A stretch of 33,831 nucleotides of DNA from Raillietiella orientalis (GCA_036172245.1 JAYWIR010000194.1:1-33831); one strand, 5' to 3'. Shown: positions 775-32,100, counted from the stretch's first letter. Program-made: numbers and translations. The notes: generated from the sequence alone by a model not told the origin.

Positions 775-835
775 CTAGAAGTGGTCGATGCTGCTGGCCA
801 TTTACTCCGCGTCCCCTAACAAGTTGCGCGTGCAC
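775..835 (-). pseudogene. Short APE endonuclease remnant (SIDH region)
   Basis: Minus strand reads roughly VH(A)RNLLGDAE*MASSIDHF, matching MRARNWFAGEGGIVRSIDHVF (~17100-17165) and VHARNLEAGEPRIERCVDHVY (~24940-25000). Confidence 0.55.
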
Positions 836-1737
836 TAGGACGATCTGAAAAGATCTGTTTGCGAGTTCTGCAGCCGTTTTCCCTTGGGCCTGCTTCCCGT
901 GGCTTTGGGGAAGGCGTGGCCAGCAGCAGAGACTTTCTCCTGACACACCAATTCTCCCGATGCTAGGACGTCCGGTACCTTTCGGAGTACAAGACCAAGA
1001 CCGAGCGCCAGGTCTGGCAGTCCGGAGAGGCTTGTCTGCTCGACGACCAGGGCCTGGAGTGCTCGGGCGCGGCGAAAGTTCGCCGCCTCCTAAAGCGCTA
1101 CTACTCCTCGTTGTATGCTGTGGAGCCGGCGGAACGCAGTCTCTCGGAGCTGTTTCTGCCGGCGGATTCCCCTGCGGTCGACAATGAGGAATGCGCTACT
1201 CTTGATTTGCTCTTGACGGCGGAAGAAGTGTCTTCCTCCATAGCGGGCCTCAAGAATCGAAAGGTGCCAGGTGAGAATGGTCTGCCTGCGAAGATCTACC
1301 ATGCTTCGCGGCGGAACTCTTCCCCCTAGTGCTCAGGGTTTCTGCGCTGATGAGAGTGACGGGCAATGTCCCGGCCTCGTTTCGCTCAGCAAGGGTGCGT
1401 CTCTTGCCGAAAGGCGGACACATGCGCCATTTAAGCAACTGGCGTCGCATCACCTTGGTGAATGCGGACGACAAGTTGTTCTCCAGGCTGTGGGTCGCGC
1501 GCCCAGGTAGGATCGCTGGATCCGTGGTAAGTCCGGAGCAGTCTTACTCTGTTCCCGGGCGGTCCATGGAGGCGAACCGGTTCTTCGCGCGCACGTGGCG
1601 CAAGCTGCAACGGTGCGTTACGCACGACAACCAGGCAACCGCATCTGGGGATGCCGAGACTAGGCGTTGCTGTATTCGGCCTGGGGAAGCGTCGGGTGCC
1701 TTGGAGATCGCTATCGATATCCGCCAGGCGTTCGATT
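836..1737 (+). mobile_element. Alpha-family ORF2 fragment, left half of a split element (linker + RT N-terminal domains up to DIRQAFD)
   Basis: DDLKRSVCEFC...ERQVWQSG...LLDDQG...YYSSLYA...KVPGENGLP...VRLLPKGG...NWRRITLVNADDK...EQ...PGRSM...IDIRQAFD, with frameshifts and stops. Closest to copies at 23821-24720 and 31360-32260. Confidence 0.9.
1722..1737 (+). repeat. Left copy of a candidate target-site duplication (partner 11128-11143)
   Basis: cgccaggcgttcgatt vs cgcaaggcggtcgact, 13/16 identical. The host RT stops at AFD here and resumes at (AV)DCVNH at the partner. Confidence 0.7.
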
Positions 1738-1739
1738 TT

Positions 1740-1766
1740 CACCCGGATTTCGCCGGGACGTTTATT
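1740..1766 (-). terminator. Element 3' end: AATAAA + CCCGG/CCGGG hairpin + GGGTG(AAAA)
   Basis: Minus strand aataaacgtcccggcgaaatccgggtgaaaa; the same motif ends five other alpha/beta copies. Confidence 0.75.
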
Positions 1767-1955
1767 TTAAAATAAACATTCACAAAGACGTGCAGTGACT
1801 GGAGCATTGTTCCAGCCACGCACGAAGAAACACAGAGCCTCATGAGTCACCGGTTCGCGGACCGGCACGGTCCACCACGGCAGCAGAGCCAAGGGGCAAA
1901 AAACGAAAAAACAATAGAAAAAGAAAAGAACAAACAGGGGGGTTACGGGAAGGGA

Positions 1956-4900
1956 TCACAGTTGCTGGTGGGGCCGTTGCATCCTTTGCAGGATGCCCGC
2001 AAGCTCTTGCTGCATGCTTGGATCCAGGTGGGGCAATTGCGACGCGCTCCTTAGGAACTGGGAGGCTGGCTGGATGGCACCCTGGACGCGTTGTCCTCCC
2101 GTATCCTTGCTTCAAGCGGTGACGATCCCGCGAAGACAGCACAAAGCTGCAAACGAAGCCACAGGCCGTAGGGCGTAGGCAACGATGAGGGCTTTCAGAG
2201 TGTCCTTGGGGTTGCCGCAGAGTACTCCGATAGCCGCGGCAAAGCAAAACCCAAGGGGCCGAAGGGCAACACAATCCTTTTGCAGGTGGGGGAGTGACTC
2301 CCGTTTCTTACACCTTACGCGATTGGGGTCCAACGCTCCCCAGGTCCAGTGCTGTCTGCGGGCGTTGCAGGGGAGTCCCCAGTGCTGCAACAGTTAAGCT
2401 GACTATTGCGATTTTAAGGGGAGAGTGGAGGTGTTCATTAGTAACGGGGGCCACTTGAAACGTCCAATGGGAACGTGGAGGAGCGCGCCCCAGCGAAGAA
2501 GTTTATGGGGAGGCGTATTCGGGGTGGCAGCATCAGTCAGCTGACCCATCTTCCACTCTCCTATCTTCTTCTCCTTTCCGGAGATTTTTACTGTAACCTT
2601 CCACTTAGCTGCAACATCGTTGTCCAGATCTTCCATCAGGGAGGGCAGCGCAGCAGGGAGGAGGGTTCTGCCTGCCCACGCTCTCTTCTTTGGATCCTCC
2701 AGGATCTGACGGAACGAGCAACTTCTGTAACCCCAAACAGAAAACTTCGTTCCTCTTGGGAGCGTTCCAGGCCGAACTGTCCCCACGTTCGAACGGTTTC
2801 CTGGAACCAGGCACTACCGTTCAAAGGTCAACAGGTGTCCAATCCTGGGTTTTTCCGGTACAGCGCAGCCAATCTCCGTAGTTGGAGTCCGCATCGGTTG
2901 ACGCGGCGACGGAGTGCAAGAAACGACATCAGTCCCGTCTTCCCGGTGGCTTGCTGGAGAAGAAGACGTGCGGGGACGCACCAACAGGTGCAATACAACT
3001 CTGGAACGAGTGCCGACAATTGGAACTGGAGCTGGAGCTCCAAACGCTCCAGCGTAAGGAGGCCCAGACCACCGTCCCGACGAGGAGCGTACAAGTCCTT
3101 TAAGCGGACTCGGGCCCTCCCGTTGCCCCGAAGGGCGATACGGAGGAGATCCTTTGTCCGCTTTTTAATTCTCTCTGTAGAAGGACAAACAATAAGCAGG
3201 GAACGGAGAAGAGGAGCAGCGAACGTGTTCCAAACCGCGGCGCGTTAAGGCAGGAAAAACCTGCCGCCTCGGAACGGGCCGATCGCCGTCTCCACTTTTT
3301 GGAAGCAGCCGGACCACGCTTCCGCAGGGGAGTAGTCCCCCGACGGCACATCAAGGTACTTGAAGTACCTCACCGTGGAAATCACCAAACGGACCCAGTC
3401 TTGCTGCCCTGCCCACGCCGCACCAACTGGCTTCACAGACGACTTCGCCCTGTTCACCGTAATTCGGGTTCCCCGATACAGCAGGTCGAAGAACTCCTCG
3501 ACCGCTGAAGCCGGGGTGGACATAGGGAGCAGCAGCAGAAGGTCGTCCGCGTATGCTGAAACGGCCGGCGTACCGGCACAGTCGTGCGGCAGGTGCGCCA
3601 GAGTTCCCCTGTACGCTCTCAGTAGCAACTCAACGTAGGTACTGAAGAGCAAGGGGATCAGGCTGTCTCTTGCCGGATCCCACGCCGCACCGGCACGCCG
3701 TGCACGGTCTGCCCGCTCAAAGTAACGTTGATGAGCGCAACGCGCCAGCAGGAGCGCAGATAGGCCATTAATGAGGCCGGGAACGCCAAGCGTTCCAGAA
3801 GCTCCAGAAGGAGATTCTGGTCGACGCAATTGAATGCTTTCCGCAAGTCTATTGCGTCCGCAAGGGCTTCCTCCCACACCCGACCATCCAACCCCTTGCC
3901 GGCGCACGCACCGGAATTCCGGCTGCGCACCATGCTCCTTTCATGCTGGAGCTCTAGCCAGGTGGAAGCGTGGAACAGGTTCGCCTCCATGCTTCGCCCG
4001 GGAACAGCATATGTCTGTTCCAGTCTGATGAAGATCTTGGCAACCCGTCACAGGCGCTCTGCTTAAACCTTTGCTAGCAACTTGGCGTCCGCATTCACTA
4101 CTGTGATGGAACGCCAGTTGTTCATGCTCCTCAGATCTCCTCCTTTAGGGAGGAGCCGCACCTTTGCCGAACGAAACGAGGCAGGAACGTCACATGTTTC
4201 GCGTATCAGCAAGGTGAGTTGCTGTACGAGGGGGGTAAGCTCAGCCGCGAAAGTTAAATATAACTTCGCGGGCAGGCCGTCCTCCCCTGGAGCCTTCCGC
4301 CTCTTGAGCTTTTCGATGGCCGAGAGGATCTCGCCCATCGTGAAAGGCTCGTAGAGGGTCTTTCTCTGCTCCTCCCCGATCGCTGGAGCGTCTTCCGGAA
4401 GCAGGAGTCGTGAGACGTTCCTTTCCGGAGGTGCCCTGGCATACAGGGAGGAGTAGTAACTCCGCAGCAGGCCGCGGATTTGGGCAGATGCCGAGTGCTC
4501 CTGGCCCTGATCGTCCAGTTCGCTGGCCGATCCGGACTGCCAGGCTTGCCTCTCGGCTCCCGCTTTGTTTTCCGGCAGCCTGCGGATGTCGGGGGTCCTG
4601 GCGTAACGACGGGCCTGCAGGTAGGCTCGTTCGTTACGGACCCTGGACCCAAAACCCGTAGGTAGGAGGTGCAGCGGCAACTGGTTGCAGAACTCCTGGA
4701 CCGACCGCTTCAAGCGGTCCCAATCCTGTAGTTACCGCAGCATGAAGCTCCGTATGAACGTGCGGAAATGTTCCGCCGCGTCCGGGAGCTTCAGCCAGTT
4801 TCTTGGGAGACGCCACGCTGACGAGGGGGGCCCCTGTCTCGCGGATGGATCTCGAGGTCTAACGGGCCATGGTCGGACAGCTCGCACGGTAACTTGCCGC

Positions 4901-5405
4901 GCCTGCCCACGCGAGGGCACCGGTGCTCGTCAAGAAACACGTGTTCAATGCTGTCTTCCATCCCCGGTGCACTGGCCAACAAATCACAGGTGTGCACCGC
5001 CATGCACACCTCGTTGACCAGGTCACGCTCGCGATTCTGCCCATCTGGTTACAGTGGAACGTTGAAATCGCTTGCAACCAGATGGGCATTCTGCACGCGT
5101 GCTTCGGTCAGCCAGTCTCGCCGGAGGGCAAGGAAAAACTCTTTCCTCGCCCTCCTGGTCAATCATGTCCGCGCCCCTCGGCGCGCACACGTTCGTCACG
5201 ATCAGGTCGATCGAGTCGGACCAACTGACAGTCAGCTGGCCGACACGACCGTGATCGTCGAACCGCACTCCACGTGCGGCGGCCTCGATGGCGGGCCCAA
5301 GCAGGTAGGCGACACCACACTTTCTCGATGTTCCACACCGATACCACAGCCGCTCTCCGGAGATGCGTTCGATCTCCTCTGCTCGTACAATGCAGACGTG
5401 TTTCC
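1956..5405 (-). pseudogene. Beta ORF2 (APE-RT-Cys/His), disrupted, lacking the first ~30 codons
   Basis: APE: RLWYRCG..KCGVAY, GRVGQL, VTNVCAP, SDF, SIEHVFL, LSDH. RT: KAPGEDGLP, NWRSITVVNADAK, DLRKAFN, RGIRQ.D.L.PLLF, YADD at 3542-3553, YFKYL. C-terminus: HWGLPCN...RCKKRESLPHLQKDC, stop TGA at 1956-1958. Several frameshifts and stops. Confidence 0.92.
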
Positions 5406-5500
5406 GCGTCTATCCGCCCAAACGTTCGGGCAACTTTGTGCCTGCGTTTTCGCTCGCACTTGTGTGTTCCTGTGCAATCTGCCAAGTAGCATAGTGCAAC

Positions 5501-6544
5501 ATGGCCAGTACACAGGTTAGTGTGGAGGAGCAAGCCACTGGATTCACTTCAGCTGCACTTGAAGCGCCCGCATCATCCGTAATGGTTTCCTCGCCCCCAG
5601 TGAGGAGTTACGCCACCGTTACCTCCCAAAGTCCAGGACCCTGCGATGCGGACTTCGAGGCATATGTGTCATCAGGAAACATGCCTGCACTCCGTTATAA
5701 GGTCAGTGGACCCCTTAACGGGAGAATCGGTCGTGAGTTCAATGATGAGCTCGTCCGGATCGGCGTTAGCGAGGAGGAACTCCTTGACATAATGCCTTCA
5801 GACAGGATGGAATATACGAAGATTCGGTGCAAGAATGCAGCACTTGTTCAGCGCCTTCTACGTAAGGCGTTGACCATCAATGGCAAGGAAGTCCTACCTA
5901 CCGCGATGGACGACTCTTTTGTCGTTCAATTGTGCGATATCGAACCGCAAATCTCCGACCGCGATGTCGTAAGTGTGCTGGCGAAGTTCGCCACGGTGCA
6001 CGCTATGTGGAGGAGGCCATATCCTCTAAAGGATTTCCCCTCTGTCCACATTGGACAAGCCTCCCCGCGGATCACCGTCGCGAACAGGCTTGTTGTGCCT
6101 GAGCAGCTGCAGGTGAACGGCACGGTCGTTCACCTCTGGTTCATGGGCCAGACTCGCGCGTGCCAGCAGTGCGGCAAGGATGGGCACCGAATTAAAGAGT
6201 GCCCCTCTCCTAAATGCCGCTATTGCAAAGATTCCGGGCACGAAATCAAAAAATGCCCGGTACTTGAAAGAAAAAGAGCCGCAGCGGAAATTCGTCGGGT
6301 TCAAGAGACCACTGCACGAAAAGCCGCAGCGGCAAATAAAGAACGTCGTCCGCAAAAACTCCCAAAAAACCACGAGCGATCCGCGGATGAAAAGAAAGCA
6401 TTTCCGCCCGCAACGCCCCGAAAGGGGAAATTCACGGCGGGGAAGCCAATTAAAAAGGGGCGCGAGGGTTTGACGCGTGCCGTGCCCTCCCTCCTGCCGA
6501 ACTCGCAGGCACCTCTTGAGCCAGGAACAATGAAATCTCCGTAA
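5501..6544 (+). CDS. Alpha-type ORF1 gag-like nucleic-acid-binding protein with two intact CCHC knuckles
   Basis: 347-aa ORF. CQQCGKDGHRIKEC (6161-6202) and CRYCKDSGHEIKKC (6215-6256), then a basic low-complexity tail. Homologous to 21250-22356 (CKDAALVQRLL, DQSFVV). The element runs ~5406-6756; the stop at 6544 may be premature. Confidence 0.88.
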   Translation: MASTQVSVEEQATGFTSAALEAPASSVMVSSPPVRSYATVTSQSPGPCDADFEAYVSSGNMPALRYKVSGPLNGRIGREFNDELVRIGVSEEELLDIMPSDRMEYTKIRCKNAALVQRLLRKALTINGKEVLPTAMDDSFVVQLCDIEPQISDRDVVSVLAKFATVHAMWRRPYPLKDFPSVHIGQASPRITVANRLVVPEQLQVNGTVVHLWFMGQTRACQQCGKDGHRIKECPSPKCRYCKDSGHEIKKCPVLERKRAAAEIRRVQETTARKAAAANKERRPQKLPKNHERSADEKKAFPPATPRKGKFTAGKPIKKGREGLTRAVPSLLPNSQAPLEPGTMKSP

Positions 6545-6756
6545 CAACCTGCAGGCAAAGGTAGGAAAACAGGAAGATCGCAACAGTGCGAAGACTTCTT
6601 GCCCCGTTCCTTTGTCCCTTCCGAGTTCCGGACAGGCCCACTGCAGCGCAGGCCTCTCTACAAAGGCTACGAAAGCCGTAAAAAGCAGCGTCGCGACGAG
6701 CTAGAGCACGCTGCATGCAGTCGCCCCATCTCCGACTCGGCAGGTTTCCCCAAGTC

Positions 6757-9417
6757 TCACAAGTGGTGGGGTAAGTTTATTTTTCTATAAAAATACAAAA
6801 TTTACATTCGCACTCTCATTCACTCAATACAAACATTTTGCACTTGGGGGTCCTTGGGTTGCACTAGAGTTCTGCTTTTCAGGGGGGAATTCAAGCTGGA
6901 TGGTCCCGGGCGTTGTCCTGGATCCTCTTCAGGATGAATCGGTACGTCCAGGCGTGGATCTTCCCGCAGTTCCTGATGCCGATTTCCCTCTTCAAGAGCC
7001 CTTGTAGGATCTCCATCGGTGGTGCGGCTCTCCTGGCTTTCCTCATTTTCCACCACCGCACAAGTATGGCGGTGATGAATAGGGCTATGGTCGTCCTCAC
7101 CAAGGGATTGTAACAGGGAACATTACCATCCCCATGAAACCTCCCGGCGAGCATCTCCATAACGGACTTGTTGGTAAGTCCTATGATCCTTTTCAGGATC
7201 AGCCAGTCATGTAGCAGTGTGGGACACGTCAAGACGTGAAGTCTCGTGTCGTCGTCGCGACATGCTGCGCAGTCTCGGTCTTCCCGTCTTCCTGTGAAGT
7301 GCTGCAATCGGGACCCACTCTGGATTGCTACGTGATAAAACATCAGGAGGTCCTCCTGGGTGCCCGGCGGAAGGTCACTCCTCCAGAGCGTCGTGCCGAT
7401 CGCTAACAGGTTGAACCGTTCACTCCCGTAGCGTTCGGTGGCTTCCTGGAGGGCACTGGTGTCACGGTCGTTTTCTTGGATAAGCCTTCGGATTTTTGTT
7501 CTGGCTACCCTCGACCATGCGAAGTCGTTGTGGTTGAACCACACTTCGCGGGTCCTGTGGGTTAACCTTCCTAACATCATCTCTATATACCGAAGTATAC
7601 GTGTTTGATGTAGGTAGCCTCCTCGCCTCCACTCCTGGATTTGCAGTAGGATAACTCTGGACCGCTGGTAGATCCAGCTTCTCGTGCCCGGCGGGACAGG
7701 AAGCAACCACAGGATCACCAGGATGGTCTCGCCCTGCCAGATTTCCCTGCTTCGCGGCACGATCTTGATTTGGTGCTTCCGCACCAGCCGTTGCTTCCTC
7801 CTCCAGATTGGGTCGATTTTTCTCCATACGCCTGCTCGGCCTAGCAGCGCAGTCATCAGGCCTTTCGAGTTGTTCAACAACAAGGCGGAGGCCCTGTGCG
7901 CGGCATACGGCCAGTCATCCCAGTGAGTGGCAATGTCCAGGATGTGTCGCGTATCCATGATTTCTATGGAGTGTTCAAGCGACCTCGTCCCGGAACCGCC
8001 TTCTTCCCTGGGACGACACAGAAGTTTTAATCGGACTCTTGGGCGATAGTGGCCCCACAGTGTTTTTCTCTGCAGCTTGTCGTACTCCCTAGTAGTATCC
8101 TTGTTCATCCTCGCGAAGGCCGCCCCGAAGAGCACTTTCGGAAGGAGTACTCCGTTCCATATGTTGGCCTTTCGCTTCATTCCAAGGTCCGTTCGGGTGT
8201 ACTTGGCTGCTTCCTTGGCCGTTTTCCCTAGGATCTCGGTCCACAATAGCTTCGACGCGGAGACGTCGCCAATGTGGACACCCAGGTACTTGGCCTTGTC
8301 CACCGTTCGGAATCCTCTCCCCGCTAGAGTGGAGAGATCGAGGATTCCAACGGGCAAGAGCTGGCTTTTCTGGGAGTTGATCTTTAGACCCAGGCCTTGA
8401 TCCATCAGGTCTACCACATCCAGAAACGCTCGTTGATTTCTCTCTCCGTTGATAAAGATGAGTAGATCATCAGCGTATGCCAGATGGGTAAGACGCTGGT
8501 CATCGATTGTTCTGCCTTGCAGTAGTCCGCTGTTCTCGATAAAGGACGACAACGCCTCCATGTAGATGACGAACAGCATCGGACTTAGCGAATCGCCCTG
8601 CCGGACTGCCCGTTCCATCCGGATTGCTGCCGTCTCCTGGCCGTTGATTTTGATTCGGCAGTACTGGTTCTGGAGTACCACCCTCACGAAGTTGCTGAAG
8701 TGTTCCGGAAGGCCTAGATTCTCCAGAACCTTCAGCAGCATCCCATGGTCGATGGAGTCGAAAGCCTTCTCCATGTCAGTGAACACCAGCGCCAGATTCT
8801 CGTCGACGTATCGGCTGTGTCCGACGGTTGCCTGGGCACACTTGACATTGTCCGACATGTAACGTCCAGGGACTGCACACGTTTGGACCGGAGAGATGAG
8901 CCTCGACATGACCTTCTCTAAGCGGTTGGACCAGATTTTCGCCAACCACTTGGCATCCGAGTTCAGGATCGAGATTGGCCTCCATTGAGCGACCTGCATG
9001 AGGTCGCCTCCTTTTGGCAACAATCTCATCCGACTCTCATAGAGGGACTGTGGAAGTCTTCCTTCTCCACGGATGCAGAGGGTCAACTGGTGGAACAAAC
9101 GCAGGTAGGCATGCAAGTTCCGGTGATAGTGAGTGATGGGTACGCTGTCTGGGCCCGCTGCCACGTCCTTACGTAGTTGACCAAACGCAGTCTTCACCTC
9201 CTCTTCGGAGAATTCCTCCTCCAATCTGTTCCGCTGGAGATCGTCGGTCCTCTTCTCGAGGTAGCTCAGGAAGGCCTATTGACTAGAGCGACAGAGATGT
9301 TGTCGCCTAAAGTGTTTCATGTAATGCCTTTGAAAGGCATCCACGATGTCCTCAGACGACTGTCGCTTTTGACCGTCGTACTGGATGCAGAAGATATCTG
9401 TTGCCAGATTTCTCTTC
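6757..9417 (-). mobile_element. Gamma-family 5'-truncated non-LTR retrotransposon (youngest-looking insertion)
   Basis: Its ORF2 is clearly divergent from alpha/beta. Short AT-rich 3' UTR ending aataaacttaccccaccacttgtga (6781->6757). ORF2-like sequence extends up to ~9417 through one TAG at 9276-9278. Confidence 0.85.
6891..9224 (-). CDS. Reverse transcriptase + C-terminal Cys/His domain of gamma ORF2 (no endonuclease)
   Basis: 777 uninterrupted codons: AAGPDSVP, QWRPISILNSDAK, DMEKAFD, VRQGDSLSPMLF, YADD at 8466-8477, KYLG, EEGG, CAAC...HVLTC. The listed start is an internal TTG, not a native start. Confidence 0.93.
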   Translation of the reverse strand: MEEEFSEEEVKTAFGQLRKDVAAGPDSVPITHYHRNLHAYLRLFHQLTLCIRGEGRLPQSLYESRMRLLPKGGDLMQVAQWRPISILNSDAKWLAKIWSNRLEKVMSRLISPVQTCAVPGRYMSDNVKCAQATVGHSRYVDENLALVFTDMEKAFDSIDHGMLLKVLENLGLPEHFSNFVRVVLQNQYCRIKINGQETAAIRMERAVRQGDSLSPMLFVIYMEALSSFIENSGLLQGRTIDDQRLTHLAYADDLLIFINGERNQRAFLDVVDLMDQGLGLKINSQKSQLLPVGILDLSTLAGRGFRTVDKAKYLGVHIGDVSASKLLWTEILGKTAKEAAKYTRTDLGMKRKANIWNGVLLPKVLFGAAFARMNKDTTREYDKLQRKTLWGHYRPRVRLKLLCRPREEGGSGTRSLEHSIEIMDTRHILDIATHWDDWPYAAHRASALLLNNSKGLMTALLGRAGVWRKIDPIWRRKQRLVRKHQIKIVPRSREIWQGETILVILWLLPVPPGTRSWIYQRSRVILLQIQEWRRGGYLHQTRILRYIEMMLGRLTHRTREVWFNHNDFAWSRVARTKIRRLIQENDRDTSALQEATERYGSERFNLLAIGTTLWRSDLPPGTQEDLLMFYHVAIQSGSRLQHFTGRREDRDCAACRDDDTRLHVLTCPTLLHDWLILKRIIGLTNKSVMEMLAGRFHGDGNVPCYNPLVRTTIALFITAILVRWWKMRKARRAAPPMEILQGLLKREIGIRNCGKIHAWTYRFILKRIQDNARDHPA

Positions 9418-11033
9418 TCAGGGATGTCCATGGGAATTTCGGCCTTTTCAGGCACCTGAGGCACCTGTTCGTCCTCCACCCCCTCCATCCCCTCCGTGTC
9501 CGCGCGTAGGATTCTCTCGGGCGACGGGTCCCGAGAGTTTCCCACGCTCATGGCACCCTCGCTTGCGGAAGCTATCTCTTCCTCTTCGACGGGGGAGACG
9601 AGCTTCCTTGGCTTTGTGGACTTTCTTCCAGCCTTCTTGCGCGGTGCCGTGGAAACGGAGGCTGCGCTTCCGGCCTCCACGTCGAAGTCGGAAGTGGGGG
9701 ACTCCTGAGGGGAGGACGGACGCCTTACGGCCTGCTTGCCAGCCTTGGAGGGTTCTGGCTGCAACGAGGCTGCCAGCTCCTCCGCGGCTCGCGCGAAGGC
9801 TACGTCAGCGATGGTGGTGTCGATGACGGACGCCGGCGCCGGCTCGCTCCCCCCGCTATTGACAGAGTCAACAGAGGGGTTGTCGTCGGTAGCGGCGATT
9901 TCTGTTTCGCAGCGGTCAGGAATACGCTCGACGACAACGCTGCATTCTTTAATTTGCTCGCTTGCCTGCTGTTTTTTCTGGCGGTACGCGAGCTTTTTCT
10001 CCATTCACCTCTCCTTTTTTGATTTTTTGGCCGTAGCCACCTGCCACCCAGGATCCTGGCTTGTTCTTTCGACTTCTTTGGCGTTGTTCGCCAGGGTCTC
10101 GGGTGCGGCCTGGGCCTTGGGCGCGGGTGGCACAGCTTTCGCGGCAGCTTTCGCCGCCAGGATTTTCTGCAGAAGCCGGGCACGTTTTATAAGGTTTCTC
10201 TTGGAAACCACCCGCACTGGTGCTTTATGGCACACCTTCCTCGTGTGTCCCATGGTTCCGCATACTTGGCACTGCACATTGGGACACCTCTTTTTGAGGT
10301 GGCCCGACGTATTTCAGAAGCCACAGTATTTCGGCTTCCCCACATACCAGAGGTCGACGGTTTCGCCTTCGACCACCAGTTTGTAGGGAAGAGTGCAGCC
10401 CTCCCGAACGGTCACGCGCGCAGTAGTAAGGCCGTGTTGCAGCCCCGTGTAGTCCTCGAAAGGACTAACTTTCGTCCAGTGCGCGTGGACCGTTCCGTAT
10501 TCCTACAACGCGGCGCGAACCTGTTCCTTGGGCATCCGCGCGGTAACACCTAACAGGTGGACCACCATGCTGCGATCCGCCGTAATAGGGAGGAGCCTGC
10601 GCGTCGCCATCACCACGGTGGTTTTAAGCATTCGTTGGGCCAGCTCTGCTTGTTTGCAGAGCACCTCAACGTACTGATCCCCGCTGCGGATGGTCATAGC
10701 GCTGAGCTCCTCCTCTTTGACATCGAGAGCGCGCATGCTCTTCGAAAAGGCGCGCACGCTCTCTAAAGAATGAAGGCTGCCTACCTTGTAGAACAATGAG
10801 GGGATATATCCCTCCTCTACATAGGCCGACAATTACGCCGCGGCTGCAGACGATGGCGCCGACACAACGGCGCTTCACGCCCGCGCTGCAGCGATGACCA
10901 ATTCTCTCGGGACGGATGCCCCCTCCTCCATCGCCTATGGGGGTGACGTTGCCGCCGCGCCATGACTCTCCATCGCCTCTGAAGGCGGCGTTTCCGCTGC
11001 CCCCTGGCCATCCCTGGAGGTCGCGTCAGGCAT
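9418..11033 (-). pseudogene. Beta ORF1, disrupted
   Basis: MPDATS...GYIPSLFYKVG...IRSGDQYVEVLCK...VVHLLG...LWYVGKPKYCGF*NTSGHLKKRC...CQVCGTMGHTRKVC...GWQV...MDIPE, with stops and frameshifts. Confidence 0.88.
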
Positions 11034-11127
11034 CACTGCCTGATCGACCACCGAACCACACGACGCTTGCACTGAGGAAGACTTTTTGTTACGAGGAGCA
11101 CCGAGAAAACACGTCCACCCTGGAGCA

Positions 11128-14920: not shown

Positions 14921-14924
14921 GAAA

Positions 14925-14952
14925 GTCCTGTTGTCCTGTAGTCCTGTAGTCC
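14925..14952. repeat. 8-bp tandem repeat (gtcctgtw) x3.5 at a deletion junction
   Basis: gtcctgtt gtcctgta gtcctgta gtcc, where ORF2 C-terminal sequence joins mid-ORF1 sequence. Confidence 0.7.
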
Positions 14953-22437: not shown

Positions 22438-22460
22438 ACAATGGAGGGGAGCAACTATTT

Positions 22461-23432
22461 ATCACCCGGGTGCGCCGGGGCGTTTATTAAAAACAATCCT
22501 GGAACAGAGTTCCTGGACAAAGCGAAAGACAAGAGACGAAGGGGGCTGGATCCCCGACACGCAGGTCGGTATGGAGAAAGTCCAGAACGGGAGGGAGGGG
22601 ACCACAAATACACTACTATAAAGAGTAAAAATAAAAATATGGTGATCAGGGGACAGGAGTATTCCGTGAGTCCGTTCCTTCTTTTCTAAACCGGCGATGG
22701 ATGCCGGCGATCTCTCTCCTTACGTCCTGTGGCAGATGGGCCTACTCGGCAGCCGACGACATGCTGGCGCTGGCTAAGCCGGTGGGCTGACGAAGGATGG
22801 CCAGCTTCTCCAACACTCGGTGGACCTTGTCGATGGCGCGGATGCAACACACGGTTGCAACGACAGCACCCAAAGAAATGCCGCCTGGCGTGAAGAAGCA
22901 GCGCATCAAGTCCCTCGCGGTGTCCCCCTGGTGCGAGAGAGCTGAGGCCAGCCTCCGCCAAAGTCCTAGAAGGGCACCGCTGTCTAGGAGCAAGTGCGGG
23001 AGCGGATTTACTTCCCCGCACCGCTCACAGTTTGGGGAGGCAAATCCCCCGGAAACACGGTTCGTCCGCTGGTTTGAGTAAAACCCCAATGTACCAGTTT
23101 GATGACGTCCAGCTTCCACGAAAGGGGGAACACAGAAATGTTCAAACAGGAGGGAGGGACCACAAGTTCTACGGGGGGCACACTCACATGTTCGCTCCAC
23201 CGAAGAAGTCCGTTCGGGATTATGCGAAGCGAGGCGGCGTCTGCCAGCTCGCAGGTCTTCCAGACGCCAATGGGTAGTGTTGTTCTTGCAATCGTGCAGG
23301 CGATCCCATCTCGCCAATTCGCAGCTGTCATCTCTTGCCCTGAGTGCTGACAGCGCGACAACGAACGGCGTGACCGCCAGGCGAGTCCACTTCTCCTGGC
23401 TGTTGCACACCTGGTCCACCGTGCAATACGGG
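22461..23432 (-). mobile_element. Alpha element 3' end (C-terminal ORF2 + 3' UTR + terminal motif at 22462-22488)
   Basis: PYCTVDQVCN...CERCGE...HLLLD...IAGIHRR, ending aataaacgccccggcgcacccgggtga. Roughly 80% similar by eye to 12240-13245. Confidence 0.88.
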
Positions 23433-23820
23433 GGGGCGTTCGCCGCCTGGAGCAAGGCTACGGTAGGACCACACGACCAGGGTGCCATCCAGCCCGCCTC
23501 CCAGTTCCTAAGGATGGCGTCGCGATGGTTCCACCTAGATCCAAGCATGCAGCAAGAGCTTGCTGGCATCCTGCAAACGATGCAACGGCCCCACCAGCGA
23601 CAGTGATGCCTTCCCGTACCCTCCCATTTTTTTTTTGTTTTTGTTTTGTATTTTGGTTTTCCCCCTTTGCATTGCTGCCGTGGTGGACCGTACTGGTCTG
23701 CGAACCGGTGACCCGGCAGGCTCTGTTTCTTCGCGCGTGGCTGGAGCAATGGTCCAGCCAGTGGACGACTTTGTTAAAGTTTATTAACTAATAAACATCC
23801 TGGCGAAATCCGGGTGAAAA
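23433..23820 (+). mobile_element. Beta element 3' tail (~390 bp) inside an alpha host
   Basis: GAIQPASQFLR...LDPSMQQELAGILQTMQRPHQRQ* plus 3' UTR and aataaacatcctggcgaaatccgggtgaaaa; inverse paralog of 1737-2120. Confidence 0.88.
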
Positions 23821-26800
23821 TCGAATGCTCTGTGCAAATCTACTGCTACTGCCAAGGCTATCGGCCTTTCTCCCGTCCGTCCGCACTGGTGCTCGCAGTC
23901 GGCAGGAGGTGTTGCCGCATTTCGGTTGTCCGCCGCAACGCGCTCTCGCAGGTGCCGTCAGGTGCGCGCGAAAGGAAAGTTCGCATCTATGGATCTACCC
24001 GGTGCAGCGTTAGACTGCTCCGGGCTTACCACGCACTCCGCGACTTTTCCTAGGCGCGTGACCAACAGCTTTGAAAACAACTTGACGTCCGTATTCACTA
24101 ACGTGATCGGACGCCAGTTGTTGAGTTGGTGCAGATCTCCTCCTTTCAGAAGGAGACGCACCCTCGCTGAGCGGAAGGAAGAAGGGACATCGCCCGTCAC
24201 CCTCATCTGCGTCGAGAGTCTGAGCACCAGTGGGGCGAGTTCCGCCGCGAAGCTCTCATAGGGCTCTGCGAGAAGCCCTTTCTCCCCTGGCGTCTTCCGT
24301 TTCTTGAGTCCTGCGATGACGGAAGAAACTTCCTCCAACGAGAAGGGCTCGTCGAGACAGGCGCGTTCCTTCTCGCCGATCTCGTGTTCACCCCGCGGCA
24401 GAAGTAGTTCCGAGAGGATTCTCTCCGTCGATGATTTGGCGTAGAGCAAGGAGAAGCGACGCCTTAGTGTTTGCCGTACTTCGGCGGGATCCGTGCATTC
24501 CCGGCATTCGTCGTCGAGCAGAATAGCCGCTCCAGACTGCCGGACTTGGCGCTCGGCCCTCGCCTTGTGCTCTGCGAGGTGCCGGACTTCCGCACGTTTA
24601 GAGAAGGTGCGCGCCTGCAGAAATTCTCTGCTATTGGCCACGCCTTTTCCAAATTCGCGCGGTAGGAGGTGCAGGTTGAACCGGTCTCAAAACTCGCGAA
24701 CCAATCTTTTAAGATGGTCTCAGTCAACGAGCTGCCGGAAGGCAAAGCCGCAAAGAAACTGGCGAGGATGCTCCGCCACCTCCGGATGACTGAGTCACTC
24801 CGCCGGCATCCTCCAAACATTGTTCGGAGGTCTCTTGCTTGGCAAAAGTAGCTCGAACTCCAGCCTATCATGGTCCGATAACGTGGACGGCATCCTGCCT
24901 CTCCTTCCCACTCGTGAGAGCAGGTGTTCATCGAGGTAGACGTGATCCACGCACCTTTCTATTCTAGGCTCGCCGGCTTCCAAGTTACGCGCGTGCACCC
25001 ACGCGCATGCCTCTTCCACCCGCGACCGTTCGCCAGGGACCTCGTCTAGTTGAAAAGCAGGTGGACGTTGAAGTCCCCTGCGACGAGATGTGCCACTCTG
25101 GTCCCGGAGTTCCTGACCCATTGGTTCTCCAGCACGTCGAAGAACTCGATCCTTCCGGCGCGCTGATGAAAGTTGTTCGGCGCGTAGACGTTCGTCAGGA
25201 CGAGGTCGATTGAATCTGACCACTTCAGTACAAGTTGGCCTATTCTCCCTTTCTGGTCGAATTGAACGCTGCGCACCGCTCCTGCCATCCTACTATTAAC
25301 GAAGAACCCGACTCCGCACGATTGTGCAGAACCTTCTCGCCAGTAGGGAGTGCCACCCGCGCGCTGTTCAATTTCGGCAATTTAGGCGTCAGAGATGTAA
25401 TGCATCTCTTGAAGGATCGCCAAGTCGATGTGTCGCAGGGTGTCTGACACGTTGCGCCTCTTTCCGTTGCTGCGCAGCCCGTTGACGTTCCAACAGGCTA
25501 CGCTGAACCGACGAAGAGAGGCGACTTCCTGCATTAAGGCTGGGAAGTTGAGCACAGGTTTCTCGCCTTGTCCGGCGGGTGGTCACGAGACAGAACGGCA
25601 GATCTTGAAGACTGGACATCTCTATTCGAAGCCGCCCTGCTTGGTACCGGTAGCTCAGAGGTGAGGCTCATTCCCTCTTATTTGCTCCTTGGCAACAGTT
25701 CCTCTTCGGCAACCACGTTCTTGCGGGTTTCCGGGAGGCGATTGCGCGGTTTCGGGCGGGTTTTGCGTTGTGTGCTCATTCTGTCGGACTTTGCATCGGA
25801 ATTCGACAGTCGAGCGCTTGCCAGGCGCTGCTTCTGTTTCCCGTAATTGGGGAAATCATTTGCTGCCAGTTTCTTAGCGCTTTCTGTTACTGGGGCTGGG
25901 AGATTCGTCCTTGTAGCCCCAGTAGCAGCTTCTTGCTCCATCCGCGAGAGGAAAACTGCAAAGTAGGAAAGGATCGCTAACTTTTTTTCAAATGGTTTCG
26001 CGGGTTTCTTTCGCCCACTCACCTTCACACAGAGCTGCGAGGAACTTGACGGTTTCATTTTAATAACCTTTCTCACCTGTATCCAGCCGTCTTCCTTCGC
26101 GTCGCAGTTATGTTTGCCCTCCTGAGATGGCGCTGCGAACGCAGATGTAAGAGGCGCTGCCTTGGCTGCCTCTTGAAGTGCTGCCTCCGCGCAGGCGTAA
26201 GCGACTCTCTTAGCGATCGCGAGAGGCACTGCCTCTTGCAGGTCGGAGAATTCGCGCGTTGCCTTTGCGACCGCTTAGGGCGCTGCTGTAGCGGTTGTGC
26301 TCGCTTTAGCAGTTTCTTCCTTGTCCGCAGTAGGTGCTGAGTCCGCGCGCGAGGGTTGCGAGTTTTTCGGCTGTTTCTTTGCGGCACTCGGCGCCTGGGG
26401 CACCTTGGCCGCTGTAGGTTTTGCCGGCACGGTGTTCTTTCCCGGGGGCGCGATTTTTCCGTATCGGGCGAGCGCTCGCATCCCTCGCCACTTGCTGAGG
26501 CCTTGATAGGAGGCGTCGCGGTCGTTATGCCGACATTAGGAGGCTTCTTGCCCTTCGGCGCACTCTCTCCTGCATTGAAAAGTTCGCTGCGAGGCCTAGG
26601 TGAGATCTCGCATTGCTTGCGAGCATCCTTCAGCTCCGTACCCTGAGGCTTCGCCGCGACGAGTTTTTTCATGTTTTTTTCCCCTTTTTTGTGAGAGGAG
26701 GAAAAGAGTTTCCTACGCATAAGCGCTCAAGGTTTTCGCAACGCTCTCCAAAGTTTTGAGGTTTTTTTCTCTCGATTCTTAGCGTTTATTTCGTAATGCG

Positions 26801-27035
26801 ATACGCGCTTCCATCTTGCGCTTTTCTTTTTTCCAAAGGAGCTCCGGGCAAGTCTCTTTTGTGTGCCCGGGCTCGTGGCAGTAACGGCAAGGGCCGAAGG
26901 ACACTTCGTAAGGCGGTGACCCTCCGGCCCGCATTCCGCGCACACAAGCGTTTGCCCGCAAACCACAGGCGGACGGTCATTCCATCCACCTGCAGTCGCG
27001 CGGGCATTGTCCGGCGATCCGCCATCGTCACTCGT
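23821..27035 (-). mobile_element. Alpha element: 5'-truncated ORF1, APE and RT up to DLHRAFD
   Basis: ORF1: VRLWFAG, CAECGPEGH, CRYCHEPGHTKETC. TAATG at 25536-25532. ORF2: MQEVAS...ACWNVNGL...LQEMH...TNVYAP...AGDFN...VDHVYL...LSDH...NWRPITLVNTDVK...VDLHRAFD. Confidence 0.9.
25532..25536 (-). promoter_or_regulatory. Overlapping stop-start TAATG between ORF1 and ORF2
   Basis: cct TAA TG cag gaa gtc gcc... gives MQEVASLRRFSVACWNV. Confidence 0.7.
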
Positions 27036-28624
27036 GGGACTGCGGAACTGTGGTCCAGCTGCCTTCAAAAAGTTGAGACGGCGATCGGCTCGTTCCTGGA
27101 AGGCAAGTTATACTTGCAGGAACGGGCCGCGGTTTGGAACGCTTTTGCGCCCCATATCCTCCGCCCCTTGCTTTTTGTTTGCCTTCCCCCATAAAATGTA
27201 AAAAGAGGACAAAGCACCTCCTCCGCATAGCCCTTTGGGGCAAGGGGAGGCCCCGATTTCCTTTCAAGGACTTGTGCGCTCCGCGTCAAGACGGCGGTCT
27301 TGGCCTCCTGACCCTGGAGCGCGTGGAAATCCAGCTGCGGTGGCGAACTCTCGCAATCGCAGCAAAGATGTGAAGCACCCTTTGGTGCATTCCTGCCGGC
27401 CTCATCGCCAGGCGTGTGTCCATATGCTAAGGACTCGCGTCATTTCTTCTGTGCCTTGGCCGGAAGATCCGAAGATGCGGCCTAATGTTCGGGCGCATGG
27501 CAACCCTGTCGAAGGTGAACAGCTGGATGGTTTGTGGGCTCGCCAGCTCCTCCGCCTGACTGGAAGAGACTGCTGGCACCTGGGCCAAGCAGAACCAGAA
27601 GAGCGAAGAACCTATCAAGTGCCTGCGAATCGGCCCATACGCCAACCGCACCCTGCAAGGAATACTCGAATTTCCCCGGAGTCGCAGGTGGACGTTGCCC
27701 ACCTCATTTGCCTCAGACATGCTTTACTTCCGCAGGGCTCTTCACGACATCCAGAAGCCGAGGTGGCATGTCTCCTACCGGATCGCAAGCAGGGAGAAGA
27801 TGTTAAGCGGCTGGACCACAGGAGAACTACCCGACGCCACGACCCCTAGCGTCAAGCCGCCAGGATTCACGAGATGGGGCGAGCTGCTCGTTATCCCTAG
27901 GAATGTGCTGAAGTGGCCCCCAGTACTAAAGGAATCCAGGATCCTGCCCCTTAAGTGCCAAGAGTCGGCGTTGCTACTGGTGCACTGGGGTTTACCCTGC
28001 AACGCACGCCGCTGGCACTGGACAAGGGGAGCTGTGGATCCTGAGTGTGTCAAATGCGGAGAGCGGCAATCGCTTTTCCACCTTATTGTGGACTGTGCTA
28101 CCCTCCAACCCCTCTGGGAAAAGTTCGGGACGACCCTCGGGCTCCCTACGGGCAGCAACCTCATAGACGTTCCCCGGCCTCTCTTTGTGAAGGACGCACT
28201 GCAGTCAGCCGCAGCCATCGCAGCTTTGTTCTGCGTCCGTGGCATCGTGGCGGCATGGATCGACGCCAACGAAGGACTGGGTCCACACGCGAGGGATGTC
28301 AACCCATAAGCCCACCGCTTCTTGGGGAGAGCTGTCGGATGGCCCCAACTGGGGAATATGCGGATCGAACTCGAGGGCTTCCTTCAACGGATGGGCCCTC
28401 CCCACAGCGAAGAGTGATCCCTTCCCTGCCCTCCAACTACTCTTTGTTTGTTTAGTTTTTATTTTTCTTTCTGTTTTATCCCCATCCCCTTTCGCTGCTA
28501 AGGAACGCTTTGCCGGGCTACGTCCAGGCGTCCCGGCAGTTCCCGTGCGTAATGCCAAAAGCGGGGCCTTGTACAGCGTATGCAGAGTTTTTTAAATAAA
28601 CGCCCCGGGCGCACCCGGGTGTAA
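27036..28624 (+). mobile_element. 5'-truncated beta element (post-RT region, Cys/His motif, 3' UTR)
   Basis: AELWSSCLQKVETAIG...APRQDGGLGL...HWGLPCNARRWHW...CVKCGERQSLFHLIVDC; ends aataaacgccccgggcgcacccgggtg (28595-28621). Confidence 0.9.
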
Positions 28625-28629
28625 ATTTT

Positions 28630-29168
28630 ATTGCTGGCGAGAAGGCCGTCGGGCGTCCGGCTTGGCCTCAGGAGTCACCCACTTCCAACCCTGAGGTGGA
28701 GGCCGGAAGCACAGCTTGCATCTCCACCGGACTTCCCAAAAAGGCTGGACGAAAGTCCACAAAGCCACGGACGATCGTCTTGCCCGACGAAGGGGAAGAG
28801 ATGGCTTCCAAAAGCGAGGGTGCGATGAGCGTGGGAAACTCCGAGGACTCCTCTCCCGATAGACTCCCTCGCTTCGGCACGAAGGGGATGAAGGAGGTGG
28901 AGACCGAACAGGTGCCCCAGGTGCCTGAAGAGGCCTCCGTCCCCATTGACATCCCCAACACTTGCTCCGCGGAAGGTGCTGCAACGCCACTTTTCCAGAA
29001 ATAATGACGGGAATCGCCTCTCGTCGTCGTCTGCTGATCGCCTGCTAGAACGTCAACGGACTAAGCGATGACTGCAAGAGGCGTAACGTGGTCGCCACTC
29101 CAGCATCCTTCGACGTGGTGCTGCTGCAGGAGATCTACGTGATCTCCGCAGATCAAGCCCGGGAGATT
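28630..29168 (+). mobile_element. Beta fragment: ORF1 C-terminus + APE start
   Basis: KKAGRKSTKPR...SEGAMSVGNS...EQVPQVPE (paralog of 9420-9740), TAATG at 29002-29006, then MTGIASRRRLLIAC*NVNGL...LLQEIYVISADQAREI. Confidence 0.88.
29002..29006 (+). promoter_or_regulatory. Overlapping stop-start TAATG between ORF1 and ORF2
   Basis: ORF 28696-29004 ends in TAA, whose last A starts ATG ACG GGA ATC GCC of the APE frame. Confidence 0.72.
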
Positions 29169-32100
29169 TCTCACCCGGTCACGTCGCAATGTTTATTTCA
29201 TATAAATTCAACAGAAACAATTATATAAAATAAACCAGTTGGGGATCATGCCCCCAACCGACCAAGGCACAAGTATCAAAAGTACATTGCTGGCACGCAT
29301 GCCAGAATAGCACAGAACGGTTTGAAGGAACTGGGAAAACAAACAAACAGAAACAAGAGAAAAAGAAATCAACGGGGGACGCCGGGACCAATCTTTGGGA
29401 TCGCTCTGGTTCGCTCCGGGATAATAGGAATTGCACCAATATTTTAGCAGTGCGAGCGGGAAGGGGTATAAGTGTCCTTCAGACGTAGTGGTCACCGGAT
29501 TAAACCGTTCCTAAAAGTCTGTAAGCCGGCGGTGGATGGCGGCAATGTCCTCTTTGACATCGTCACAAAGATGAGACCTCCTAGCAGCGTTTTCGATGGA
29601 TTCTCCTGCAAACCGGTGAGCCTTCCTTCGCTGCGCTTACAACTACAGGGCGAAGCGGGCCTTCACGACTGCGCGAACGCAACACATGGTTGCGACAATC
29701 GCGCCTACCGAAAATCCATTCCTCATGAAGAAGCGCCGAAGCACATCAATAGCAGTGCCTTCCGGCGGCATGACTGAAATCAGCCTTCGCCACAGTTTAC
29801 GGAGGTCACCGCTGTCCAGGAAAAGGTGCGGAAAAGACTTGATCTCTCCGCATCACAAACAGTTTGGCAGAGCATCTCCCCCGGAAACGATGCTTCGTTG
29901 CCGATTACAGTGGAAACCCCAGTGTAAAAAAAGCAGCACATCTTGCTTCCACTTCAAGAGGAACACGGAGCTGTCCGAACAAACGAGGAGGATTACTCTC
30001 TTATCGAAGGGTACACTTGAATGTTCACTCCATTGAAGCAGGTTCTTCGCCCGATTAGGAGAAGTGGACTTTTCCATCAGCTCCTCTGTCGTCCAGCAGC
30101 CGAGGAGCTCAGTGACTTCCTTTCTTGAGCAGAACTCCCATTTCGCCGGTATGCAACTGTCGTTGCTTGACCTGAGAGCAGACAGCACTGCGGTGAGAGG
30201 TCTGGTAGCCATACGATCCGAAATCTTCTTGTCCTGCATGACCTCGTCCATTGGATGACTGAGGAGAAGTCGCAGGCTCCGAAGATCTTCCAAACGCGAT
30301 CCATTGGAAGCTGCCTACGATGAAAAGATTCCTGTTGCCATGCTTCAATGTTCATGGGGCGACAGGAGATCCAACATTGAGCTTCCAGCAGTGAGGACAG
30401 CTGCCTCAGCGGAAAGCCAAACCCTATTCTCGTGTGCCGAAAGTGGGGTAGCAACGAAAGCAGTCCCTCGCTTCCCGTGCAGTGCCTTAGTAAAAATCGT
30501 GCGGGTACGCATCACAACGTACACCACAGCTCCACACAGAGCCGCAGCATTCGAAACTGCACCTGCAGCTCGATGCTTATTAAGTCTAGGATGACCAGGC
30601 AGGCATCCTGACGCGGCGCCACCAAGTCTTCAAATCTTACGCGGGATCTTGCACCCCGCCCCCCAACGTTTTGCGTAGAAGGGGCTGCGTCCAGACTTTA
30701 ACTTCCTAGGGGAGTGAGCAAACAAAAAACAGGATGCAGAGGAGGGGGACAACGAAAATGTTCCAGATGCTGGCCCGTTCCGCCAAGACGAACTCGCCTC
30801 CTGAGAACGGTCCAAGTGCACGCTCTGCCTTCGGTAGGAAGTCCGACCACGCTTTTGTGACGCAGAACTCGCCCAACGACACGCTGAGGTACCTTAGGTA
30901 CCTGGCTGTGGGGATCCCCAGACAAATCTAGTCGGACTGTCTTTCCCACGTCGCTTCAACCGGAACAACCATGCACTTGCTCCTGTTGACGCTCAAGCCC
31001 GCACCGCGACGAATCAATTCAAAGAAATCTTCAAGCGACGCTGCCGGTGTTGACATGTACAACAGGAGAAGCAGGTCGTCAGCATAGGCTGCCATGCCCG
31101 CCGTGCCTGCACAGGAGCTCAAGAGGTTGGATGGCGTCAGCATGTGAGCCTTCAGCACCATTGCAAAATTGATGCTAAAGAGCAGGAAGCTTAAGCTATC
31201 GCCCTGCCTAATTCCTCGCCAAACCGGCACGCCGTACACGTGACAGCCACTGAAAACAATGGATGTAATCGCGTTTCGCCAGCAGGAGCGCAAGTACACC
31301 AACAGGGATGCCGGGAGGAACAGGCGTTCCAAGAGCTCAAGAAGAAGCTTTTGGTTTACGCAATCCAAAGCTCTGTGCAAATCGACTAAGGCTTCCTGGG
31401 TTTCCCTTTGCGACCCGCGCCTGCGTCGGTAAGAAATCGAAGGCGTTGCTTCCGCACGACGATCCATCGCCTGGCGATTCTGCAATTGCAGCCATATGAG
31501 GATACATAAGAGGTTCGCGTCCATGGATCTCCCAGGAGCAGTGAAGGTCTGTTCCGATCTTACCAAAACTCCGCGATCTTCCCCATCCGCGCCACTCGAA
31601 CTTTCCAGAACAACTTGACGTCCGAATTCACTAATGTGATTGGAAGCCAGTTTTTCAGTTGGCGCAAATCTCCGTCTTTCGGCAGGGGACGCACCTTGGC
31701 TGAGCGAAACAAGGAGAGGACATCGCCCGAGTCTCACATCAGCGACGGGAGTCGGAGCACCAGGGGGATGAGCTCCGCCGCAAAACACTTGAAGAATTCC
31801 GCGGGCAGTCCATCCTTGCCTGGCGCTTTTCGTCTCTTGAGCCGCGAGATGGCCGAAGAAATTTCCTCTGCCGTGAAGGGCTCATCGAGACGCGCGCGTT
31901 CCACCTCGTCTACAACAGGTGCATAAATCGGCAGAAGCAGCTCGGAAAGACTGCGTTCCGTTGGTGCCTCTGCATACAGAGAAGAGAAATAGCGCCTAAC
32001 TATCCGCCGCACATCGTCTGGAGCCGAGCATTCCCGGTCCTGGTCGTCGAGCAGAACTGTCGCTCCTGACTGCCAGACCTGGCGCTTAGCCTTGGACTTG

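Follow-up and report, generated by a model that had tools for sequence, protein, structure and literature searches.

Do two families of long interspersed nuclear elements (LINEs) use each other's coding sequence as landing sites? The question is raised by a sequence of 33,831 nt from Raillietiella orientalis (GCA_036172245.1 JAYWIR010000194.1:1-33831), here called the window, in which broken copies of two L1/Tx1-like families, alpha and beta, adjoin one another in opposite orientations. A prediction made from the sequence alone, below the original prediction, had proposed that each family inserts antisense into a conserved coding site of the other: beta into the reverse transcriptase (RT) of alpha, at the codons for the residues AFD, and alpha into the start of the beta endonuclease, which is of the apurinic/apyrimidinic type (APE). 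We mapped the copies and their ends, placed the junctions on the host proteins and compared the histories of hosts and inserts. We consider reciprocal, site-preferential nesting of alpha and beta to be the best reading of the window, with a probability of about 0.6.

Junctions between alpha and beta at two coding stretches

A motif scan combined with exact-register reading gave six canonical 3' ends, in which AATAAAC is followed after 12-14 nt by CCGGGTGA and no poly(A) is present. Three of them terminate on the minus strand, at 1739, 22462 and 29171, and three on the plus strand, at 13245, 23817 and 28621 (the last reading GGGTG); all six are within 3 nt of the positions first proposed (1737, 22460, 29168, 13248, 23820 and 28621). 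A seventh, variant tail (AATAAAC..CCCCA..TGGGGA) ends at about 6747 on the minus strand. Five of these seven ends adjoin the partner clade, antisense, at one of two hot spots, as do three of the five full-length 5' ends (copy X-left against C2, W against T and P5' against X-right). At the hot-spot junctions that can be classified on both sides, host and insert come from opposite clades and lie antisense in every case (8/8).

The first hot spot lies in the alpha RT. The tails of two beta copies, C2 (1739-5405, minus strand) and S' (23429-23817, plus), run into AAATCGAA, the reverse complement of the A-F-D codons of the alpha RT. The hosts are C1 (778-1738, plus), an N-terminal part of the RT broken just past these codons, and Y (23818-27034, minus), which carries part of open reading frame 1 (ORF1), a linker, an uninterrupted APE and the RT as far as AFD. 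Both break at the same nucleotide, the first flank bases being 1738 and 23818, and on the scale of P0120, an intact RT from the databases, both alignments stop at residue 234, the D of KAFD. The beta side of the prediction, with ends placed at 1737 and 23820, was in this way confirmed at 1739 and 23817. A third break, not part of that prediction, is found in alpha X-right (11128-13245, plus), which starts at 11128, corresponding to P0120 residue 230 and thus five codons before the end of C1 and Y; the alignments of C2, Z and P0120 to X-right all begin between 11128 and 11140, and the full-length 5' end of an antisense beta, P5' (9401-11127, minus), lies directly to its left. The AFD codons are uninterrupted in alpha Z (the RT-bearing part of copy Q/Z, 29171-33831, minus), in beta C2 and in P3' (6747-9400, minus), the one copy of a third family, gamma, and they are deleted in beta F (14952-19560, minus). 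The site is broken in three of the four alpha copies and in none of the beta copies (0/1), and the insert in the alpha host is a beta element each time (3/3). At AFD, two independent insertions share a target nucleotide and an orientation, as is characteristic of a sequence-specific LINE.

The second hot spot lies in the beta APE, where three alpha 3' ends (13245, 22462 and 29171) and two alpha 5' ends (5406 and about 22448) adjoin antisense beta sequence within about 62 nt, close to the 60 nt or so originally proposed. On a host-sense scale with 0 at the H-V of the QE.H motif, beta C2 starts at 0 against the 5' end of antisense alpha X-left (5406-6746, plus; junction 5405|5406), beta U (28633-29170, plus) ends at +37 against the tail of alpha Q (29170|29171), and beta G (13246-14921, minus) ends at +62 against the tail of X-right (13246|13245), so that U is broken 25 nt, or 8 codons, before G. 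On the residue scale of the Z endonuclease, C2 starts at 58, U ends at 66 and G ends at 72. The flank of the 13245 end is antisense beta APE, reading ..VQEIHVISEADVKEIKTISGGD up to the break. A further case is T (22449-22461, plus), a beta-like APE remnant of about 14-25 nt between the 5' end of alpha W (of copy W/V, 19993-22448, minus) and the 3' end of alpha S (22462-23433, minus). Read in fixed register as the flank of 22462, T matches the flank of 13245 in G at 12 of 16 and 15 of 23 positions (binomial p ~3e-4 to 5e-4), and the layout of W, T and S would be the trace of two elements inserted one after the other at a single target, with a single target-site duplication left in between. A reading of the flank left of 22462 as upstream, C2-like beta sequence was rejected, the local alignment scoring 13 where shuffled sequences averaged 11 and reached 18. 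Nothing interrupts the APE zone of beta F or of alpha Y, Z and V. The zone is broken in three of four beta copies, and also in the T remnant, and in none of three alpha copies; all five inserts at the zone are alpha elements in beta or beta-like hosts (5/5).

The division into two families, on which these counts depend, is recovered by phylogeny. Quick IQ-TREE searches of four separate regions, with SH-aLRT as the only measure of support, split alpha from beta at values of 82-100. The tree from the RT C-terminus to the 3' end gave (Z,(X-right,S)) at 90 and ((C2,S'),(K,F)) at 100, the APE tree gave (Y,Z,V) | (U,C2,(F,G)) at 97, the ORF1 tree gave (W,(X-left,Y)) | (P5',N,(F,G)) at 100, and the RT N-terminus tree joined (C2,(F,frag)) at 82. 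Alpha comprises C1, Y, Z/Q, X-left, X-right, S and W/V, and beta comprises C2, S', F, G, K, frag, U, P5' and N. A single family mis-split into two had been suspected at first, as F reads through the apparent boundary in the APE, and was ruled out by the trees; alpha and beta are real sister clades, as the prediction had it, and not an artefact of reading. The RT of P3' sits on a very long outgroup branch in the RT trees, which sets it apart as gamma. An artefact in a wider sense, whether one family mis-split or a mis-assembled repeat array, would find some room in a region that is wholly repetitive and in which F crosses the alpha/beta boundary, but the copies are only 56-84% identical and so too diverged for an assembler to collapse, F is an uninterrupted beta copy, and the two clades separate in every region. 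We consider such an artefact highly improbable.

Independence of the insertions and competing explanations

Segmental duplication of one ancestral composite, followed by rearrangement, would produce repeated junctions from only one or two real insertions, and the original prediction had itself warned that two of the junction pairs might be such copies. A block of homology (778-2132 / 24782-23429) does cross the AFD junction, and X-right and S are 80% identical with a likeness that extends 15-23 nt into their flanks. However, a copied composite or a transduced flank would diverge equally on both sides of a junction, and the AFD pair does not: the host parts (778-1737 compared with Y) are identical at 648 of 960 positions (67.5%, p-distance 0.325), whereas the insert parts (1740-2132 compared with S') agree at 323 of 384 (84.1%, p-distance 0.159). 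The hosts are thus twice as diverged as the inserts (Fisher p = 2.7e-10; transversions alone p = 7.7e-4), and as CpG is not depleted, hypermutable CpG is not the cause of the gap. Nor is C1 closer to Y (67.5%; 72% over the whole block) than to the uninterrupted Z (71.5%), the relation of these copies being unresolved in the RT tree. The unequal divergence argues for two independent hits at one AFD nucleotide, and uniform divergence, named at the outset as the outcome that would speak against reciprocal nesting, was looked for in this pair and not seen. At the APE, the insertions of X-right into G and of Q into U have different positions and involve different subclades of both insert and host, and are therefore independent. 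The suspicion of copying is removed for the AFD pair and retained for the pair 13245/22462, which could still be one duplicated event; as an account of the whole pattern, we regard duplication as very unlikely.

The same divergence bears on 3' transduction, in which a master copy residing in the partner would read through into its flank and carry the same junction along without any targeting. The lack of poly(A) and the position of AATAAA about 20 nt before the end make read-through conceivable. Yet a transduced flank should share the history and divergence of its insert, which these flanks do not, and the supposed flanks are long host elements with ends of their own (1.7 kb for G, 3.2 kb for Y), which leaves transduction scarcely probable.

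More has to be conceded to a loose nick preference. Were A-rich motifs (AAAT or AAY) preferred as in L1, the few such sites in elements of 55-60% G+C would be hit again and again, and the alternation of alpha and beta would be an accident of a small sample. AAAT occurs in the first 5 nt of five of the seven flanks and AAY in all seven (7/7), the starts being AAATCG (twice), TAAATA, TAAATT and GAAATC, and there is no AAAT at the corresponding positions of the uninterrupted copies (F and C2 at the APE, Z and X-right at AFD). Each element has only 11-28 AAAT sites on both strands, one alpha and one beta together having 54. The G flank, on the other hand, starts with TGAAC and not with AAAT. If insertion were uniform over a 5.7-kb element, with two strands and two clades, we estimate a joint chance of ~1e-7 that two beta junctions coincide exactly and two alpha junctions lie within 25 nt of each other; limiting insertion to the 54 AAAT sites raises the estimate to ~1e-3, a figure that leaves out the three 5' junctions and the 8/8 opposite-clade rule. 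In our judgement, a loose A-rich preference explains part of the pattern but not all of it, and we consider it unlikely to be the sole explanation.

Several points weigh against reciprocal site-preferential nesting. The motif AAAT is rare in these GC-rich elements and present in five of seven flanks, so that a simple nick preference explains part of the clustering. The evidence comes from one window of 34 kb and not from a whole genome, and perhaps only 5-7 independent events are represented in it. The fixed coding sites of the original prediction stand at AFD, to one nucleotide, but not at the APE, where two positions separated by 25 nt are used for the alpha 3' junctions (one by X-right and S, the other by Q) and two more for the 5' junctions. 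The two 3' positions may be subfamily-specific; as it stands, the APE target is a zone, unlike the single-nucleotide precision of classical site-specific LINEs, and the proposal that each family lands in a coding motif of the other holds for the window as an opposite-clade, antisense rule without a fixed APE site. The insertions of X-right and S, with 15 of 23 flank positions matching, may be one event later duplicated, and 23 nt of flank have no power to decide this. A target-site duplication at AFD is unproven, as the tail of C1 matches the head of X-right at 12 of 16 positions but also matches Y at 11 of 16. At the APE, C2 and G were considered as the two halves of one host with a 62-nt duplication and rejected, the overlap being about 60% identical by eye and the two belonging to different beta subclades.

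Some ends also fall outside the scheme. The tail of beta K (28621) is followed by only 11 A/T-rich bases that can be assigned to no element and then by the 5'-truncated U, which makes this end unclassifiable; the tail of gamma P3' sits antisense in the linker of alpha X-left, outside the hot spots; and the full-length 5' ends of F and N adjoin positions that are not hot spots, in frag and in C1 (at 778), respectively. Two of these misfits, the K tail and the 5' end of F next to frag (placed at ~19548, here 19560), had been named from the start and hold. In addition, the 5' truncation of G adjoins the truncated 3' side of F. With divergence of this order, old deletions and 5' truncations are to be expected.

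Nesting order, mechanism and known systems

The nesting alternates alpha, beta, alpha and is up to four levels deep. The left part of the window (778-14921) can be accounted for by four nested events. An alpha element, now C1 and X-right, would have entered beta G at the APE; a beta element, now C2 and P5' (tail at 1739, 5' end at about 11127), would then have entered that alpha at AFD; alpha X-left would have entered that beta at the APE; and gamma P3' would have been inserted into X-left last, with a deletion that took the 3' part of X-left and the start of the beta APE. On the right side, a beta element extending from T to S' would have entered alpha Y at AFD, and its APE would have received alpha W and alpha S. 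At the far right, alpha Q/Z would have entered beta U at the APE. The terminal branches, 0.30 and 0.22 for the hosts C1 and Y compared with 0.08-0.24 and 0.10 for the inserts C2 and S', are in keeping with hosts that predate their inserts.

The precise 3' ends, the variable 5' truncation and an overlap geometry that fits staggered nicks point to target-primed reverse transcription. We propose that both families would use it preferentially against a short piece of the partner's coding sequence, entered on its antisense strand: beta at the KAFD codons of the alpha RT, and alpha within some 60 nt close to codons 40-60 of the beta endonuclease. The site preference probably has its source in the specificity of each family's APE, which would act on top of a general nick preference for flanks starting with AAY or AAAT; in the passages that treat the Tx1 clade and R1, APE specificity is documented as the source of site choice (PMC4494074, PMC1919474). 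The overlap between the ends of host 5' parts and the starts of host 3' parts would correspond to target-site duplications of about 15 nt at AFD and about 25-60 nt at the APE, as judged by overlap geometry only, no host having been shown with both halves. Arrays formed in this way would feed their own growth. About five of the seven tails have a 5-bp GC stem before the final TGA, and this stem folded no better than shuffled sequences (best z = -2.5). We also looked for base pairing of the RNA 3' end with the nicked strand of the target and found only coincidences of 3-6 nt.

A stronger version of this reading is more tentative, and we put it somewhat short of even odds. Alpha and beta would be a co-evolving, site-specific pair, the endonuclease of each recognising a constrained coding motif of the other in antisense (the catalytic KAFD codons and the QE.H-GG segment of the APE). 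Every insertion would disable a competitor and at the same time plant a new target for it. In this way, gene-free arrays with alternating nesting would propagate themselves and provide a safe haven that could not be lost to either family as long as the other is active.

LINEs that target transposons are already known, as are LINE arrays that grow by nesting. Within the Tx1 clade, as described in the relevant passages of PMC4494074, elements target piggyBac, mariner or long terminal repeat (LTR) elements, a choice attributed to the endonuclease of the element; examples are the crocodilian Tx1-Mar, found in Mariner-N4_AMi, and Tx1-8_Crp and Tx1-4_AMi, found in LTR retrotransposons (PMC4494074). 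Tx1L and Tx2L of Xenopus and other LINEs of this clade resemble alpha and beta in having an APE-type endonuclease and in preferring another mobile element (PMC4494074). They differ in that their targets are DNA transposons or LTR elements and not the coding sequence of a partner LINE, and no reciprocity is described in those passages. The L1-type Zepp and ZeppL elements of green algae form arrays that 'target existing copies' (PMC8226300, PMC3446292). Their target is their own family, mostly in tandem arrays at 3' ends, and the passages concerned mention neither a fixed coding site nor an antisense rule nor a partner family; ZeppL of Chlamydomonas also exceeds 8 kb, compared with about 5.7 kb for the elements of the window. 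Self-targeting of the Zepp kind is not what the window holds, as host and insert belong to opposite clades at all classifiable hot-spot junctions.

Points of likeness are also found in R1 and R2 of ribosomal DNA and in TRAS and SART of telomeric repeats, site-specific LINEs with exact 3' junctions in which two families share one multicopy target; TRAS and SART, moreover, insert in opposite orientations. What these elements target is a repeat of the host and not the partner, with a single nucleotide position for each family. Some families of plant LTR retrotransposons are found nested in particular regions of other elements (PMC6911290). These are LTR elements with an integrase, the preference described there is statistical and regional, and no coding motif of a partner LINE is involved. 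No reciprocal LINE pair exploiting coding motifs of the partner emerged from full-text searches, which did not extend to the primary Zepp paper and supplements; this falls short of proving that none has been described. A pair of families living on each other's conserved coding motifs would, if real, be a new solution to the 'safe haven' problem, with a target that could not mutate away without killing the partner. Competition between alpha and beta would then build heterochromatin-like arrays at no cost to host genes, and the two would offer natural APE endonucleases with distinct, readable targets, useful for studying how APE-type specificity evolves.

Element architecture, copies and relatives

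The G+C content across the window is 52-61%. A sensitive self-BLAST gave 51 repeat pairs, those of at least 80 nt being 56-80% identical. Among the 98 stop-free frames of at least 125 aa, Pfam identified three as RVT_1 and one as zf-CCHC, the rest being unrecognised. The three RT domains have E values of 5.7e-34 (6894-9275), 3.4e-8 (30931-31881) and 4.4e-5 (23961-24686). The endonuclease is weaker by profile: in a search at E <= 1, two of the five APE-region frames matched Exo_endo_phos at E = 0.007 and 16.5 bits, below the cut-off of 24.5, and the APE motifs WNVNGL, LQE.H, NVYAP, GDFN and SDH were recognised by eye. The zf-CCHC match, in the ORF1 frame at 5495-6541, scored 21.6 bits (cut-off 20.8), and paired CCHC knuckles were read from the ORF1 translations of F, G, P5' and W; the RRM-like region of ORF1 was judged by eye only. 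According to tblastn with window frames and database relatives as queries, pieces of RT, APE and ORF1 cover nearly the whole window, and neither this mapping nor the Pfam search of the 98 frames showed any other type of gene. The most complete copies have, from 5' to 3', an untranslated region (UTR) of about 100 nt, ORF1 (RRM-like, with two CCHC knuckles), a long charged linker, APE, RT, a Cys-rich C-terminus and a 3' UTR, in total about 5.7 kb. By these domains and motifs, alpha and beta are probably complete autonomous L1/Tx1-like LINEs. The 5' UTRs are too diverged for alignment to fix the exact 5' ends. At 55-60% G+C, the CpG frequency is 0.06-0.10 per position (778-2132 and 23429-24782), about as expected, although these copies are 16-33% diverged; the organism probably does not mutate methylated CpG in the DNA of the window.

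The nearest database proteins combine PF00078 and PF03372, often with PF13966, at 24-35% identity. The intact frame P0001 is related to generic L1-type ORF2 proteins (21-35% identity), and the best named matches are generic L1-like proteins of Anolis and plants, the comparison containing no named Tx1 references. Much closer is P0120, an intact RT of 619 aa on a 2870-nt contig from a JGI sample, which is 62-68% identical to beta C2; a beta-like family is active, or recently was, in some sampled microbial eukaryote. With P0120 as the query for related loci, we found seven, all of them remote (22-35% identity, or a 28-residue piece), its own contig not among them. A search of metagenome and viral contigs for the 3'-end pattern gave no matches (0). 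When 11000-30999 of the window was compared with a public DNA run (X1), 458 contigs matched at 80-99% identity, and a fraction of 0.06 of the sampled words was present. Seven contigs were at least 99% identical, 40 were at 95-99% and 290 below 90%. The joints and loose ends listed for these contigs are switches between paralogues and give no evidence on junctions. The number of matching contigs indicates that the families are abundant in the organism sampled.

From left to right, the window starts within N (1-775, minus), a beta 5' UTR and ORF1 that runs off the window start and has its 5' end near 775; it was placed by BLASTN to F (9-569), by tblastn and by the ORF1 tree. C1 follows, assigned by its P0120 alignment and the RT tree, and then C2, which extends from the QE.H motif of the APE to the GGGTGA at 1739, is collinear with F and K and is placed by the trees. 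X-left consists of an alpha 5' UTR, ORF1 and linker, with an open frame of 349 aa and a CCHC knuckle, and was assigned by the ORF1 tree. Gamma P3', an RT with C-terminus, has its variant 3' end at about 6747 in the X-left linker and contains a stop-free frame of 794 aa (6894-9275, minus strand), with RT and Cys-rich C-terminus, amid copies riddled with stops. No APE is present between this RT and the beta ORF1 and linker of P5', and P3' is either a young, 5'-truncated insert or an APE-less chimera. A supposed APE fragment after its tail (6545-6736), called from a 10-nt match, was discarded when BLAST and MAFFT showed no homology. P5' comprises a beta 5' UTR, ORF1 and linker; its full-length 5' end lies at about 11102-11127, its linker is 80% identical to that of U, and it is collinear with the 5' part of F and placed by the ORF1 tree. 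X-right then carries alpha sequence to the GGGTGA at 13245 and falls with alpha in the tree.

G, which contains beta ORF1, the linker and the first 50 or so APE codons, is broken at the GG.D motif by the X-right tail, is 75% identical to F and is placed by the trees. F itself lacks about 507 nt of RT near 16202-16207 and its last ~530 nt; relative to C2, the RT gap removes domains 3-6, including the AFD and YADD region. Next to it lies frag (19565-20007, plus), a beta APE-RT linker and RT start, 76% identical to F and placed by the RT tree. At 19993-20007, frag (plus) and the APE of alpha V (minus) overlap by about 15 nt in BLAST coordinates, at a junction outside both hot spots. W/V is a single alpha element with 5' UTR, ORF1, linker and APE, its 5' end lying at about 22437-22448, and was identified by tblastn, collinearity with X-left and the trees. 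Beyond T come S, an alpha 3' part with its GGGTGA at 22462, and S', a beta 3' tail that is 84% identical to that of C2, both placed by the tree. Y was assigned by alignments, tblastn and the trees.

U, a beta linker and APE start, was placed by the APE-region tree, and Q/Z, with AFD and APE intact, continues from its 3' end at 29171 until its linker runs off the window end. Between Y and U lies K (27041-28621, plus), a beta RT C-terminal part that reaches the 3' end and is 76% identical to F. K was at one point taken to begin at AFD, with a twin-priming inversion joining Y and K, and this was dropped, as K begins after YLG..PLG, about 450 nt past AFD. The bases behind its tail (28622-28632) were likewise considered as an AFD remnant and rejected, the similar bases belonging to the U linker that is common to U and P. 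Within 28595-28632, these 11 bases start with AATAAA on the other strand and form an inverted pair with the AATAAAC..GGGTG of the K tail.

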